Assembly: GCA_902800905.1 (NCBI GenBank) | Contig: CADCGC010000003.1 | Coordinates: forward strand, 2,283 to 66,282 | From: an uncultured Erysipelotrichaceae bacterium | Lineage (GTDB): Bacteria; Bacillota_I; Bacilli_A; RFN20; CAG-826 | Length of the DNA stretch: 64,000 nucleotides | Reading direction: 5' to 3' | Part shown: piece by piece, positions 17,529 through 63,719 of the stretch | Numbering within the stretch: position 1 is the first letter of the stretch | How the letters are laid out: each line of letters begins with the position of its first letter | The notes under the pieces: model-generated | What the model saw: only the letters and a program-made list of their open reading frames with translations | Told to the model about the DNA's origin: nothing | Databases searched by the model: none | Translations under genes and position numbers: made by a program

Positions 17529-17533
17529 TCGGT

Positions 17534-17878
17534 ATGCATGAATTAGGAATCGTTGTCCACGTCATTAACCAAATTGAAAAATTAGCCAAAGAAAACAAGG
17601 TCAACAAAGTTGTTGAACTTACTCTTGAAGTTGGAGAGGTCAGTGGAGTTGTCAAAGAATACTTCATTGACGCCTTTAACTGGGCGATTAAGAAAACTGA
17701 ATATATGAAAGAATGTAAACTTGTTTACATCACTATTCAAGGAATCAGTTATTGCGAGGACTGCAAACAAACATATCCAACTACGGAATATGGAAAAGAA
17801 TGTCCACATTGTCATTCTGGTCACACTTACTTAGTGACTGGAAGCGATGTTGTCATTAAAAATTTCAAAGTTGAATAA
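17534..17878 (+). CDS. hypA: Hydrogenase nickel-insertion metallochaperone HypA
   Basis: N-terminal MHE Ni-binding motif (MHELGIV). Two CxxC pairs (CEDC…CPHC) form the Zn site. 114 aa. Confidence 0.8.
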   Translation: MHELGIVVHVINQIEKLAKENKVNKVVELTLEVGEVSGVVKEYFIDAFNWAIKKTEYMKECKLVYITIQGISYCEDCKQTYPTTEYGKECPHCHSGHTYLVTGSDVVIKNFKVE

Positions 17879-17957
17879 TAGAATTGGAGTTGTGTTTATT
17901 TACAACTCCTTTTTCTTTACTGGTGTATGCGTAAAAATATAAAATATATAAGAATTT

Positions 17958-22041: not shown

Positions 22042-22155
22042 TAATAAGGATACTTTTTCGCAAAATCTATTGAAGTCTATTTCAATATTATGATATTGTA
22101 ATTCAGCAAACTTTCTTAGAACGACATTAAGGTTCTAGGCGGAAGGAGATTACAA

Positions 22156-22359
22156 ATGAAAAAAGACGTACATCCAAAATACTACAGATGTGTAGTTACA
22201 TGTGTCAGCTGTGGAGCAACATTCGAAACTGGTTCAACTGCTAAAGAAATCAAAGTCGATACATGCAGCAATTGTCATCCATTCTATACCGGCAAACAAA
22301 GATATGTTCAAGCCGATGGAAGAGTCGACAGATTCAACCGTAAATACGGACTTAAATAA
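22156..22359 (+). CDS. rpmE: 50S ribosomal protein L31 (Zn-ribbon type A)
   Basis: [10 protein letters not shown]…CxxC…[12 protein letters not shown], the canonical L31. GGAAGGAG RBS. Confidence 0.9.
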
Positions 22360-22365
22360 GGAAAT

Positions 22366-22387
22366 AACCGGTTATACCGGTTTTTTT
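22366..22387 (+). terminator. Rho-independent terminator after rpmE, ending 9 nt before the metG ATG
   Basis: aaccggt-tat-accggtt hairpin followed by ttttttt. Confidence 0.65.
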
Positions 22388-22395
22388 GCAGTTTT

Positions 22396-33751: not shown

Positions 33752-34208
33752 TTAATTGGTATAAAATATCTACTTAGTATATATATCACCATTGTAGTGA
33801 CTACACATGTAGAAACCGTGGTTTGTTTGAAATTAAATAATAATTAAGCAACATATTTGTAGTTGTCCAAACCGATTAATCAAAAAATGACGAGCTGCCC
33901 CAGACGACAGCAAAAAAGATTGCTTCGGGGCTCGTGACACAAGCTTTTCATGACATAATGTTAATGAAAGATTTTGTGCAAAACAGAACGAAATGATTTA
34001 GACAACTTCATAGATAAACTCACTTATTTTTTGTTGCTGCTTCTTTCGCCATAATAAAACGCAAACAAAAAAATTTTATAAATAAACGTTGCTCTATAGT
34101 GTAGAAGCGATGTTTTTATAATGTAGATACAATATTTCTTATATAAAGTGAATATATTGTGTAATATAATATCTTTGATAATTAATCAAAGAGAATCGTA
34201 GGTATTTT

Positions 34209-56346: not shown

Positions 56347-57828
56347 ATGGAAGAACAAAAGAAAAAGAAATTTCGTTTTAGATTCCCATTATGGGCCAAG
56401 ACATTAATCGTTTTAGTGTTATCCGTTTCACTCGTTAGTATTGTCGCGGTTGTTTTCTCTACGAACGTTTACAAAGACATCACAAGAAACCACTACATTG
56501 AACACTCTATCGAACTCGCGGACACTCTTGGTATGTATCTCAATCTTGATGACACCAAAGCAGTTAAAAACAAGGTTGACACTATTTACAAAGGCCTCTC
56601 AGAAGAACAAAAAGTTGAGAACTCTTATTGGGGAGAACCAGAATGGGAAGCATATTTACAAAACTACAACGAAGTAGTTGCAATGCCAGAATACACTCGT
56701 CTATTCAACCAAATTCATGAATTCCATTCAAAGAATAATGTGAAATTCACATATCTTGCTTACGCTGATTTTACAAATTATAGACTTATCTATTTAGTGG
56801 ATGATTCTCCAGAAGAAGAAAGATGTCTTCCGGGAAGTTTTGATGATTTCACTGAAAGTGATATGACAATCTTTGATCACCTTGAAAGCGGTTTCACTCC
56901 TGAAATTACTAACATGCCAGAATATGGATATCTCGCTAGTGTTGGTAGACCAATCTTTGATGGTACTACCCACAATATGGAAACATTAGTGGCTTTCTCC
57001 TTAGTAGACCTTTCAATGGATGACATCATCGCTAAAGAAAACGAAGGAATTAGAACACTATCGTTCCTCTTAGCGGGATTAGGTGCTGGAGCGGTCATTA
57101 TTAGCTATATTCTTGTTTTAATCTTACTTGTTAGACCAGTAAGAAAGCTCACTAAAGTCGCTAATGAATATGTTGAAGGTGGAGATGAAAACTTAAATAA
57201 ATTCAGTAAGATTAAGATTAACACCGCTGATGAAATTGAAGACTTATCTAACTCCATGAAGAAGATGGAAGAAGATCTTAACCGCTACATCACCGACCTC
57301 TTATCTACAAGTACCAAGCTTGAAGGTGCAGAGAAACAAGCGATTGAAATGAAGCACCTCGCTGTTGTTGATGCTTTAACTAATGTTGGTAACAAACTCG
57401 CGTATTTTGAAACAGAAGAAAGATTAAATGCCTTAATTAATGAGAATAACGCTAAATTTGCTATCTGCATGATTGACTTAAATGATCTAAAACTCACTAA
57501 CGACACGATGGGTCATGAAACAGGTGATGACTTAATTGTTGAATTAAGTAATATCATTAAAAATGTCTTTGTGAACTCAACGATCTATCGTATTGGTGGA
57601 GATGAATTCGCGGTTGTTATTGAAGGTGAAGAAGTTAAGAACCTTAAGAAATTAGAAAATCAATTCATTGCTCGTATTCAAGAGTCAATAAATAAAGGCG
57701 GAGATATCATTGTCTCTGCAGCGATTGGTTCAGCGACATTCAATCCAAATATTGATAACAACGTTGAAGATACATTCAAGCGCGCTGACACAAGAATGTA
57801 TGAGAGCAAAAAGAAAATGAAAAAATAG
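56347..57828 (+). CDS. Sensor diguanylate cyclase: TM – extracytoplasmic sensor (Cache-like) – TM – coiled coil – GGDEF
   Basis: Two TM helices flank a ~200-aa extracellular domain. GGDEF active site RIGGDEF. 493 aa. Confidence 0.75.
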   Translation: MEEQKKKKFRFRFPLWAKTLIVLVLSVSLVSIVAVVFSTNVYKDITRNHYIEHSIELADTLGMYLNLDDTKAVKNKVDTIYKGLSEEQKVENSYWGEPEWEAYLQNYNEVVAMPEYTRLFNQIHEFHSKNNVKFTYLAYADFTNYRLIYLVDDSPEEERCLPGSFDDFTESDMTIFDHLESGFTPEITNMPEYGYLASVGRPIFDGTTHNMETLVAFSLVDLSMDDIIAKENEGIRTLSFLLAGLGAGAVIISYILVLILLVRPVRKLTKVANEYVEGGDENLNKFSKIKINTADEIEDLSNSMKKMEEDLNRYITDLLSTSTKLEGAEKQAIEMKHLAVVDALTNVGNKLAYFETEERLNALINENNAKFAICMIDLNDLKLTNDTMGHETGDDLIVELSNIIKNVFVNSTIYRIGGDEFAVVIEGEEVKNLKKLENQFIARIQESINKGGDIIVSAAIGSATFNPNIDNNVEDTFKRADTRMYESKKKMKK

Positions 57829-60140: not shown

Positions 60141-60944
60141 TTAAATCCTTGTGATAAAGGAGATAATTGTTTCCTTAACGACTTCGTAGTCAACATCTAT
60201 CCACTTTGATGCTGGGCTTCTAACTTCTTTAGAAAAGTCTTTATCATCAAGCGTGTCAATTATTGAATCGGTTAATTCATTAATATCGTTTGGCTTTCTA
60301 TTAGACGATGCAAAAAACAGCTTTAATATGTCCCTGACTTTTGAAGTATCAACAAGTTTGTTAACAATTAAATAATATAAATCATATATATCTTTGTATC
60401 TTGTGCTTAAAGGCCCAAGTCTTGCTAGCGATAACAATTTTTCAGAAAAGATTTGTTCACAAGGATTTACTTTCATTTGAATATTTTTGTTCCCGTTTTC
60501 AAAGGAAAAAACAATCCTTTCTTGTTCAATTGCGGAGTATGTGTGAACGCCGATATCTAGTTTTATTCTCAGTTTGCTTTGCTCTTTGTCTTGAAGCAAC
60601 AAATTTATTCTTACGCCTTGATAATCTTCTTGGTGCAATTTCTCAATGTCGCCAACAATCGATGCGGATATGTCATCGTTAATTGAATCTAACTTTTCAA
60701 CAAACCACCTTATAGATTCGTCTTCAATTGAATATCTAATCAAATCAAAATCAATATCTTGTGTAACGCGTCTATCACTTTTGGTTAAATTGAACATCAC
60801 TATACCACCTTTTAAGGTAACGTGATCTGATAATGGTGATGAGGCAATCTTTGTTAACAAGATTTCTTCCGCTGCCAAATTTTGAGCGTTTCTATAATTG
60901 TGCCCAGAACCAATGTATTTATTAACGATTTCTTTAATTAACAT
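60141..60944 (-). CDS. AbiEii/AbiGii-family nucleotidyltransferase toxin (type IV TA / abortive infection)
   Basis: NTase motif TLKGGIVMF…RVTQDIDFD (GG…DIDF). 267 aa. Immediately downstream of an AbiEi-like gene. Confidence 0.65.
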   Translation of the reverse strand: MLIKEIVNKYIGSGHNYRNAQNLAAEEILLTKIASSPLSDHVTLKGGIVMFNLTKSDRRVTQDIDFDLIRYSIEDESIRWFVEKLDSINDDISASIVGDIEKLHQEDYQGVRINLLLQDKEQSKLRIKLDIGVHTYSAIEQERIVFSFENGNKNIQMKVNPCEQIFSEKLLSLARLGPLSTRYKDIYDLYYLIVNKLVDTSKVRDILKLFFASSNRKPNDINELTDSIIDTLDDKDFSKEVRSPASKWIDVDYEVVKETIISFITRI

Positions 60945-61490
60945 TTATATTGCCTCCTTAATTTTTAGTAATATGCTACTACCATTTGAAAATGATTTAA
61001 GATACCGATTGACCTTATAAAAATCTATTTTGTCTTTAATCTTTCTAAAAGAATTAACAACCTCATAATATATTTCTCTTGGATACTTTTCTTTTAATCT
61101 AAATAGTTCAATTAGAAGTCTTTCTAAATCATATGTTCTTACATATCCTTCTTCTAGTTTTTTAATAGTGACACCAACCTCAAAGAAAGAAGAATCTTGA
61201 TAAGATTGTTTGATATCGCTTCTTCTAATAGGAAAACTGTGTTGTTCAGTTGCAAGATAATAGCGATCCGGAATAAAATCAGTCAATCCATAAATATAAA
61301 ACGCTGAAAGGCCAGTCAGTATTGCGTATGGATATTTTTTATAAATGAATACTTCGCTATTGAAAGAAGAATTGGGTTCATCACAATAATATCCTCTTTC
61401 GAACATAAATAAAGAACCGCCTTTTAATTTGTTTCGGATAGAGTATTCGGTTTCACCTTTTTCCAACAATTCTTTAGTTGTATAAATCAT
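60945..61490 (-). CDS. AbiEi-family antitoxin/transcriptional regulator
   Basis: 181 aa. The C-terminal segment (VRTYDLERLLIELFRLKEKYPRE…) is homologous to the partial gene at 63712-64000. Lies directly upstream of the AbiEii gene. Confidence 0.5.
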   Translation of the reverse strand: MIYTTKELLEKGETEYSIRNKLKGGSLFMFERGYYCDEPNSSFNSEVFIYKKYPYAILTGLSAFYIYGLTDFIPDRYYLATEQHSFPIRRSDIKQSYQDSSFFEVGVTIKKLEEGYVRTYDLERLLIELFRLKEKYPREIYYEVVNSFRKIKDKIDFYKVNRYLKSFSNGSSILLKIKEAI

Positions 61491-61618: not shown

Positions 61619-62530
61619 TTAGTTCTTTTTCTTTCTTAAGAACAAGAATGATCCAATACCCACTAATGAGATAGATGATATTAATACCGCTAAAGCGATA
61701 TATGTATTAGTGTCCTTACTAGCAAAGCTAATAACATCACTATTTCTTGCATATTGATGAGTGTCTCTACTAGTAACAAATTCAGTGTACTTAGTAATAC
61801 TCTTATTGTACTTGTTAATGACAAAGTCATATTTTGACATTGCCCATTCAATAGAGTTATTACTATCATCTTTATCAGCGTCAGTGTAGCTCACATATCT
61901 AAGATAGTTCTTTGCAGGGGCTATTAAGGCGTCATACACATCTTTAGCAGCGTCCCATTCATCTACACTAGGACCATTCACTTTGTCGTCACAGTTGATG
62001 TTTTTCATCGCTGTAACAAATGAGGTAGTAGAAGCATCAAATGAAAGTAGATTTAGTCTCGCGTTATCTCCTGAAGATAGATTAGCCCATAATTCAAATC
62101 CCCAAATGTTATTAGTGAGATTTAAGTAATAAGAATCAGATGTATCTCTAATATATGTATATCCACCACTTTCAACAACTTTCCATTCAAAGTTGCAATT
62201 CTCAACATTCGTGTTGGAATAATATTTCGCATCTTTGCCTAATCTAGCTAAGTAATTGTTGCTATAGAGATTTCTAATATAGTAAACACTTGATTTACCA
62301 GATACCTCTTCAAAGTAATAAGGAGTTGCTAATGAGTTATATGCTTGAGCGGTAATAGAGTAATTGTTTCCTTCTTTTACTCCATAAGAAGAATTCATAT
62401 TTAAGATCCAATATCTTTCACTAGAGGTAAAAGAATCCGCTTTTACTTGTTGATAACTATTATTATTAAATAATAAAGCACCACCTAATAGTGACACCAT
62501 TAATAGACTTGTTAATATCGTTTTCTTCAT
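61619..62530 (-). CDS. Surface protein with a ricin-B-like (beta-trefoil) lectin region and a C-terminal TM anchor
   Basis: Signal peptide. Repeated (Y)YIRN/YIRD…NNYL…FEWKV pattern. C-terminal IALAVLISSISLVGIGSFLFL followed by RKKKN, the same anchor style as the nuclease at 34209. Confidence 0.4.
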   Translation of the reverse strand: MKKTILTSLLMVSLLGGALLFNNNSYQQVKADSFTSSERYWILNMNSSYGVKEGNNYSITAQAYNSLATPYYFEEVSGKSSVYYIRNLYSNNYLARLGKDAKYYSNTNVENCNFEWKVVESGGYTYIRDTSDSYYLNLTNNIWGFELWANLSSGDNARLNLLSFDASTTSFVTAMKNINCDDKVNGPSVDEWDAAKDVYDALIAPAKNYLRYVSYTDADKDDSNNSIEWAMSKYDFVINKYNKSITKYTEFVTSRDTHQYARNSDVISFASKDTNTYIALAVLISSISLVGIGSFLFLRKKKN

Positions 62531-62627
62531 GTTCTCAATCTCCTTACCCTATGGGCATTGTGAAAACAATATATGAATTGTCTATATGTGTCAAGTAAAA
62601 GGAAGAACTATCTCCTTAATATTATTC

Positions 62628-62866
62628 GGGTCGGGTCGAGATATCAGGGTTCTTATATGGTTATTTAAAAGAGCTATCAAAGCCAAAAAGCTTGTTATAA
62701 GAATAGTACCAAAGGTGGAAAGTGTATGCCCATCACGGAATAGCTACCGCAGATGCAAGCATCAGCATGCAACCACGGCGCATCTCTTCGGAGGTAGTAC
62801 AGTGCGATTCAGGAATTCGCTGTCCTGGTTGGTAACAAAAACGTCCCTAGAAAGGATGTTTTTTTA
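62628..62866 (+). ncRNA. Candidate structured RNA of unknown class (GC-rich island, ~240 nt), ending in a bidirectional terminator
   Basis: Local GC is far above the flanking sequence (gggtcgggtcgag…ccacggcgcatctcttcggagg…). Multiple hairpins (gcgattc-agg-aattcgc; ctcttcggag). A -10 TAATAT box sits 7 nt upstream of the GGG start. Terminator acgtcc-ctagaaa-ggatgt followed by ttttttt at 62841-62866. The overlapping 141-aa ORF is Arg-rich and not protein-like. Confidence 0.4.
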
Positions 62867-62882
62867 TAATTATGAATTTTTA

Positions 62883-63719
62883 CTAGTAGCAAACATCTAT
62901 CCAATATTTAATTATATTTACAACATCTTTGAAAGAAAGATTTTCTGCATATTTGACCTTTTTGCCAAAGGCGATCCATCTTTTATTGATATGTTCATTA
63001 TTCATTATTAAATCGATAAGATTAAGTGCTTCTACTTTAGATATGGAACAATTCCTGTAATTACATGTTTGTCTATATGCTTCTCTTAAAATATCGTTAT
63101 TAATATATGTACGCTGCGTTTTGTTTAAAATATATAAATCGTAATAGTCCTTACTTCTACTATTAGCAATACCTCTCGATAAAACAGTTTCAAGTTTCTC
63201 AGCAACTACGCTTTCCAAACTATACGCCTTGATTGGTAGAACTTCTCCAGTTACCAAGCATTTATAATTATAAGAACGCTCTGAAGGAAAAATAGGATCA
63301 CCTGTTGCTATATCAATTCCAAATTGGTATTTAACATTATCGAGTTTTGCTAACATAATAACTTGGAAACCACCATATAAATCATCTTCTCTGATATTTG
63401 AAGAGTCAACAACTGTAAAGGAAATATCATCACCAATATCAATAGATATAATTTCTTTGATTAGTGTTACAATCTTTTCTTTTTCCATAGATACTTTTCT
63501 TAAATAGAAATCCATATCCATAGTGCTTCTTGCATCAATTCCAAGGACAGACGATAAATATAAACCGCCTTTGAGAATTAATTTGTTTTTATATTTTGAA
63601 ACCGCTAAGCGAGATAAAAAAGCATCATAAAAGAAACGATTATAAATAACATTTTGAGAAACATTTAATTCTTTAGCTAGATTATTCGCTCTAGCTTTAA
63701 GTGAATCCTTATTAATCAT
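62883..63719 (-). CDS. AbiEii/AbiGii-family nucleotidyltransferase toxin (second copy)
   Basis: ILKGGLYLSSVLGIDARSTMDMDFYL NTase motif. 278 aa. Confidence 0.65.
   Translation of the reverse strand: MINKDSLKARANNLAKELNVSQNVIYNRFFYDAFLSRLAVSKYKNKLILKGGLYLSSVLGIDARSTMDMDFYLRKVSMEKEKIVTLIKEIISIDIGDDISFTVVDSSNIREDDLYGGFQVIMLAKLDNVKYQFGIDIATGDPIFPSERSYNYKCLVTGEVLPIKAYSLESVVAEKLETVLSRGIANSRSKDYYDLYILNKTQRTYINNDILREAYRQTCNYRNCSISKVEALNLIDLIMNNEHINKRWIAFGKKVKYAENLSFKDVVNIIKYWIDVCY

Follow-up and report, generated by a model that had tools for sequence, protein, structure and literature searches.

The intergenic region and its neighbours

The window (the whole stretch of 64,000 nucleotides analyzed here) contains a 352-nt intergenic region (62531-62882) hosting an element of about 240 nt (62628-62866) that an earlier reading of the DNA had singled out as a candidate structured RNA. 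Both genes flanking this region are on the minus strand (Table 1), and they belong to a defence island comprising two AbiE pairs along with DUF4143 ATPase, DUF4379 and CoiA-like genes. The element had been described as lying between the two AbiE pairs; in fact, it sits between the second abiEii gene and the gene coding for a 303-aa protein, which separates AbiE pair 1 from it. No gene lies downstream of it on the plus strand, and hence the view that it is unlikely to be a cis-regulator of a plus-strand gene is upheld. The earlier note had overlooked the minus strand, on which the element is situated between the abiEii terminator and the next gene's promoter. Past the window end, we observed four copies of the 16-nt motif TTTCGGTGTTTTGAAA (L054 8528-8589 and 8862-8877), three of them spaced exactly 23 nt, shortly before a second AAA_14/DUF4143 ATPase gene; the arrangement is reminiscent of an operator or iteron.

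Table 1. Genes, signals and predicted structures at and around the element, in window coordinates
Feature	Position	Strand	Remarks
AbiE pair 1	60141-61490	minus	Beyond the 303-aa gene as seen from the element
Gene for a 303-aa secreted, membrane-anchored protein	61619-62530	minus	Weak ricin-lectin-like match
Promoter-like site of the 303-aa gene	62566-62594	minus	TTGACA-17-TATTGT; promoter scan, 10/12 matches; outside the element
Through-running ORF, 141 aa	62586-63011	plus	Open across the intergenic region; passes the terminator and runs antisense into abiEii
TAATAT -10-like hexamer	62617-62622	plus	5 nt ahead of GGG at 62628; putative, weak promoter
AT-rich 5′ segment	62628-62699	plus	37.5% GC; 8-bp inverted repeat 62650-62657 / 62696-62703; fold z = +0.69
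Predicted multi-branch fold of the GC-rich core	62700-62836	plus	Closed by UACCAA (62707-62712) with UUGGUA (62829-62834), the predicted P1; a further predicted hairpin at 62809-62828
cUUCGg-capped hairpin	62782-62795	plus	AUCUC-UUCG-GAGGU, 5 bp, one U.G pair
Bidirectional terminator-like hairpin	62837-62870	both	AAAAACGUCC / GGAUGUUUUU, 7-nt loop; U7 on plus, UUUUUGUU on minus
Second abiEii gene	62883-63719	minus	278 aa; Pfam PF08843, E = 7e-35; convergent neighbour, terminator common to both

The 303-aa gene differs from its surroundings in variability: among 4-6 otherwise near-identical contigs, 37 of its 912 nt vary, compared with about one position each in the element and the abiE genes. 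At 62490-62545, immediately to the left of the element, there is an abrupt change in SNP density, and several contigs break off there. The gene has the appearance of a surface antigen that varies between strains and is possibly diversifying, with a recombination boundary close to its start. An "empty site" was also sought through the 303-aa product and a 293-aa product, neither of which is on record as a protein.

AbiE is described as a two-protein toxin-antitoxin system, in which AbiEii is neutralized by AbiEi (PMC3985639; bioRxiv 10.64898/2026.01.19.700257). The earlier note had proposed checking whether homologues of the element co-localize with abiE genes, and we fetched 13 loci with relatives of this AbiEii (71-79% identity). 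These present seven distinct downstream contexts, namely a 181-aa ORF, a DUF3990 operon, a Cas4-like gene, a nitroreductase gene, a 122-aa ORF adjoining DUF4160, HTH and Y1 transposase genes, and two others. Searches of the 13 loci with nhmmer, blastn and a covariance model found the element in none of them, and an association of the element with abiE is thereby refuted. The occurrence of the relatives' cassettes in seven contexts further indicates that the neighborhood is often reshuffled. Some abiE relatives carry a different non-coding spacer of 259 nt after abiEii (L044 / L048 4844-5102; 32% GC), which begins with a terminator-like hairpin of its own and, compared by eye, is largely shared by two contig families; it bears no relation to the element.

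Composition, coding potential and folding of the element

The region stands out by its base composition. The 150-nt GC maximum reaches 0.50 at about 62701-62850 (window mean 0.34, standard deviation 0.046), and no other of the window's 18 intergenic regions of >= 80 nt reaches its 100-nt peak of 0.55. The intergenic region that harbors a c-di-GMP riboswitch, the sole bona fide structured RNA of the window, peaks at 0.45; as the element's peak exceeds those of all other intergenic regions, this one included, the compositional anomaly is real. The "sharp GC-rich island" reported earlier nevertheless has to be narrowed: it holds for a core at 62700-62836 (50.4% GC against a window mean of 34%) but not for the AT-rich segment preceding it in Table 1. 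The element is also purine-rich on the plus strand (56%), whereas the flanks, with their genes on the minus strand, contain 46.5-47.4% purine on the plus strand. The next-highest 100-nt GC peaks (0.42-0.47) belong to the intergenic regions 33752-34208, 17529-17957, 22042-22395 and 1-322, which have no Rfam match at gathering level. The riboswitch itself is a c-di-GMP-I RNA (RF01051; 56204-56281, plus strand; 52 bits vs a gathering score of 35) located 66 nt upstream of a gene for a HAMP-GGDEF diguanylate cyclase (56347-57828), an arrangement that raises the possibility of a feedback loop in which a c-di-GMP-sensing RNA controls a c-di-GMP synthase.

A frame open across the whole intergenic region is called as an ORF of 141 aa by metagenome gene callers (Table 1), and on this ground one may consider a small protein, encoded by it or by a shorter ORF inside it. 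We regard such a protein as barely credible. The ORF passes through the terminator and on into abiEii in antisense, there is no Shine-Dalgarno sequence ahead of its ATG, and no Pfam match to its product was obtained at E <= 10; among 5.8 billion protein clusters the product matched itself and nothing else. Its GC content by codon position is flat (0.42/0.47/0.44), whereas that of AbiEii is periodic (0.37/0.29/0.21). The dismissal of the overlapping ORF as junk was thus borne out, both by the sole homologue being the ORF itself and by the missing codon periodicity. A blastx-like concatenated search with the open stretches of the remaining five frames likewise gave 0 matches at E <= 1. As far as can be tested from the sequence, the element is thus non-coding. 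For a decayed foreign coding fragment there was no positive support in any frame, with the proviso that a badly decayed fragment of 140 nt is hard to detect.

The description of the element as a structured RNA fared less well. Its folding energy is no lower than that of shuffled sequence on either strand: compared with dinucleotide shuffles, the minimum free energy (MFE) of the whole element has z = -0.17 on the plus strand and -0.64 on the minus strand, and across seven sub-regions on both strands z ranges from -1.83 to +0.69. The predicted fold of the core is marginally better on the minus strand (z = -1.10) than on the plus strand (z = -0.39). Internal hairpins are present as previously noted, but their stability does not exceed that seen in dinucleotide shuffles. 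One of them, capped by a cUUCGg loop, stands alone among the 11 CTTCGG sites of the window's two strands (128 kb) in being closed by at least four consecutive pairs; its U.G pair on the plus strand becomes an A.C mismatch on the minus strand.

These values near zero are consistent with the island being a relic without function, or one confined to the DNA level, at a point where cassettes of a variable defence island meet, for example a leftover fragment of a GC-richer gene or RNA gene or the scar of an insertion or deletion, in which the hairpins are those of any sequence with 50% GC and the terminal hairpin is simply the abiEii terminator. The frequent reshuffling around abiE, and the shift in SNP density with contig breaks at 62490-62545, fit such a junction. 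Against this, the flanking genes of the island are AT-rich, as the codon-position values of AbiEii illustrate, and with AT-rich mobile DNA on its flanks the composition of a donor fails to explain the GC-rich block; the cUUCGg hairpin, the asymmetry of the wobble pairs and the purine loading would moreover all have to be coincidences. We consider a relic possible, and nearly as likely as the plus-strand sRNA to which we turn below.

Promoter- and terminator-like signals on the two strands

The proposed start of the element at a GGG behind a -10 box stands insofar as both sequences are there, but the promoter scan calls no promoter at this site. The -35 available to the TAATAT box is poor (AGTAAA at 17-nt spacing) and a TG extension is absent; it is for want of an acceptable -35 that the site is missing from the scan's list. 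Promoter-like sites as such occur in the region at chance level (five observed vs 4.1 expected). As to the terminal structure, the earlier note spoke of a strong bidirectional hairpin with a U-tract. The hairpin and its T7 are present, and the terminator scan calls them on the plus strand (hairpin 62837-62863, then T7), but their strength is modest, with 3 G-C pairs among 10 and free energies of -9.4 kcal/mol on the plus strand and -7.9 on the minus strand. The plus strand has the longer U-tract as well as a G.U pair that becomes an A.C mismatch on the minus strand. Since the hairpin begins 17 nt beyond the abiEii stop codon, it doubles as the abiEii terminator and would be needed there regardless. 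Judged by the pairing of a promoter and a terminator on one strand that is expected of an independent sRNA, the plus strand offers a called terminator and a TAATAT box without its -35.

The weakness of this terminator on the minus strand, with its A.C mismatch and its tail UUUUUGUU, and the minus-strand orientation of both flanking genes bring up a different reading, by which leaky termination after abiEii would carry transcription into the GC-rich block, so that the block would lie between cistrons or in the 5′ leader before the 303-aa gene and would serve as an additional insulator or terminator, or in RNA processing or stability. The slightly better folding of the core on the minus strand (z of -1.1 to -1.8 there, vs -0.2 to -0.4 on the plus strand) is in keeping with this. 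However, the 303-aa gene has a good promoter of its own (62594-62566) downstream of the element, which places the element upstream of that promoter and out of the gene's leader, and makes read-through unneeded. Further, the element matches no cis-regulatory family of Rfam on the minus strand, the z-scores are non-significant, and the purine skew and wobble pairs point to the plus strand. We therefore view a minus-strand element as unlikely.

The sole plus-strand promoter-like site reported by the scan in the region lies further upstream, at 62491-62518 (GTGACA-16-TAATAT, with an upstream TG forming an extended -10), within the first codons of the 303-aa gene. A transcript from this site would be a longer antisense RNA of about 340 nt that overlaps the start codon, RBS and 5′ UTR of the 303-aa gene (62525-62559) and might regulate it in cis, with the GC-rich part as a stabilizing 3′ domain. 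In this connection, ATCTCCTTA, the complement of the RBS of that gene (TAAGGAGAT), occurs twice on the plus strand, 72 nt apart (62538-62546 and 62610-62618). Read on the minus strand, the second copy lacks a suitably spaced start codon; it may be what is left of an RBS or, should a longer plus-strand RNA exist, an anti-SD motif. The promoter-like site that this antisense RNA requires is nonetheless of a kind found at chance frequency, the 9-nt repeat is weak, the fold of the 342-nt sequence has z = -0.19 and there is no conservation to test; all told, we deem it quite improbable.

The account that we tentatively favor is that the island is a lineage-restricted plus-strand sRNA of about 240 nt with an unspecified target. 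Such an RNA would be transcribed independently from a start near G62628 and would run to the U-tract near 62870, stopping at the intrinsic terminator common to it and the convergent abiEii. A small number of hairpins, the cUUCGg-capped stem among them, would form in its GC-rich 3′ domain of 137 nt. Other orphan sRNAs of Firmicutes suggest, by analogy, a regulator that would work by base pairing or by binding a protein. Whereas the compositional anomaly, the hairpins, the terminator and the missing coding signal are observed, we infer that the island is transcribed, from which strand and start, and that it has a function. The cUUCGg hairpin, the wobble pairs, the purine loading and the better terminator are weak and post hoc clues in favor of a plus-strand transcript. 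Against 49 translation-initiation regions, predicted pairing did not surpass that of shuffled sRNAs, 23% of which reached the best energy observed, and the neighboring genes were average as predicted targets.

Known RNA families, relatives and published candidates

A scan of the whole window against Rfam 15 at gathering scores returned the c-di-GMP-I riboswitch and nothing at the element, and when 62500-62950 was scanned permissively on either strand, the matches were at chance level, all with E >= 0.1. ARAGORN detected neither a tRNA nor a tmRNA. The label "unclassified" is thus confirmed by the cmscan that the earlier note had called for, with no Rfam 15 family reaching its gathering score on either strand; the families covered include tmRNA, RNase P, SRP, 6S, T-box, riboswitches, known sRNAs, parts of group I/II introns and HEARO. 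The best permissive match, STnc370 (RF02064; 24.1 bits vs a gathering score of 54, E = 0.68), was set aside as a chance match driven by the terminator: that family likewise combines a small hairpin with a terminator hairpin and U-tract behind it, but it is enterobacterial. We likewise rejected a type III antitoxin RNA of the ToxI-like kind, which consists of a tandem array of repeats of about 34-36 nt adjoining a toxin gene; TRF reported no array in 62400-63000 (minimum score 30), and direct repeats measure 9 nt at most. Also rejected was a mobile or repeat element (a MITE, IS end or att repeat), there being no second copy in the 64-kb window and no meaningful repeats at the boundaries. A 21-nt motif in the 5′ part of the element, GGGTTCTTATATGGTTATTTA (62647-62667), recurs with 19/21 identical positions about 3 kb past the window end (L054 3153-3173), at a different intergenic junction within the same minus-strand operon. 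Beyond the motif the two places are not alike, and the match is at about chance level in an all-against-all comparison; this pair is the only repeat between the element and the approximately 9 kb beyond the window.

Copies of the locus itself were recovered on 14 metagenome contigs from ENA and Logan, all the same locus at >= 99.3% identity; they were found through the ORF product as an index, and a set chosen in this way for an identical product is biased against variants and uninformative on constraint. The contigs derive from rumen samples, the ERZ1029110-16 and STEW19-1 sets among others. The element carries one SNP among them (62837 A>T). One scaffold (ena:ERZ28613091, STEW19-1 scaffold_210525) contains an 838-nt piece identical to 62502-63339, covering the element and the 3′ part of abiEii. 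Its flanks (L062 1-120 and 959-1416) are extremely AT-rich by eye, and one of them encodes an 88-aa DHHC-type (PF01529) ORF of eukaryotic appearance; either the scaffold is chimeric or the bacterial DNA sits within a eukaryote of the rumen.

Searches for more distant relatives were uniformly negative within their respective ranges. No relative was found with blastn among PLSDB plasmids and INPHARED phages, or with three exact probes in IMG/VR, where a 15-mer gave 38 chance matches in contigs of about 61% GC. Six back-translated anchors scanned against 185,579 GTDB representative genomes and against JGI metagenomes yielded 266 and 368 pattern matches, respectively, none of them confirmed, and two-anchor DNA patterns yielded 20 and 12 loci in these collections, all 32 alike at the anchors only; scans of this type detect relatives of roughly >= 85-90% identity. 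The source locus was itself recovered in neither the GTDB nor the JGI scan, and the lineage is hence poorly represented in both collections. A single-sequence covariance model of the core, run over 153 kb (the window and related loci), found itself only. As no diverged homologue was found, there is neither covariation nor evidence of selection to draw on; by the earlier note's own standard, which treats missing conservation in relatives as a refutation, the candidate would at face value fail. This confinement to one locus of one population, with absence from every relative and collection searched, adds to the case for a relic, and so does the fate of most GC-rich "unknown" intergenic regions in published surveys, which never gain support; against a relic, the DNA and six-frame protein searches found no donor sequence. 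One might alternatively ascribe the lack of homologues to poor sampling of this rumen lineage and posit an undescribed structured RNA (a decoy, sensor or regulator) working with the defence island, which we judge to be highly improbable.

The setting of the element also invites comparison with RNA antitoxins. RNAs of this kind are known beside abortive-infection and toxin-antitoxin toxins: those of type III, such as ToxI and AntiQ, consist of repeats, and those of type I, such as SR4/bsrG and RatA/txpA, are antisense RNAs overlapping at the 3′ end. Like them, the present ncRNA candidate adjoins a toxin gene in a defence island, to which it is convergent, with complementary 3′ ends across a common terminator. 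It differs from them in having no tandem array and in that its overlap with the abiEii mRNA would be limited to the terminator of about 30 nt.

Closer parallels are offered by the "unnamed" or low-ranking candidates of the GC-IGR and DIMPL pipelines (Breaker lab; PMC11109978, PMC6429828, PMC8723152). The rationale of the former is that GC-rich intergenic regions in AT-rich genomes are enriched for ncRNAs (PMC11109978), and the logic by which the earlier note had picked out this site is that of these pipelines. Their candidates share with the element a long intergenic region, an ncRNA-like GC content, an AT-rich host genome and the lack of an ORF and of any known RNA. The difference is that promotion in these schemes needs several unique representatives with a covarying consensus, and here there is one unique sequence, for which reason the site would be filed under "Unnamed: insufficient evidence to classify" in the GC-IGR scheme. 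In the GC-IGR survey, the 4,714 intergenic regions with ncRNA-like GC content and length resolved into, among others, 2,948 ORFs (PMC11109978, Table 1), 607 low-ranking cases, 427 that stayed "unnamed" for lack of representatives, 250 mobile or repeat elements, 48 terminator stems and 10 sRNA candidates (PMC11109978). Here, GC content and a terminator sufficed to flag a site, not to establish an RNA. The island is in these terms a legitimate, if as yet unsupported, ncRNA candidate: an orphan, unclassified and not linked to AbiE.

If it is transcribed, it would be one more lineage-specific sRNA of an uncultured rumen bacterium, of local interest unless functionally tied to the defence island. 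Such an RNA would resemble the orphan trans-acting sRNAs of Firmicutes. It differs from them in its weak promoter and in showing no conserved seed and no predicted target above background; it shares with them the free-standing unit of about 200-250 nt with a -10 box, hairpins, a U-tract terminator and no ORF, as well as an intrinsic terminator held in common with a convergent gene.
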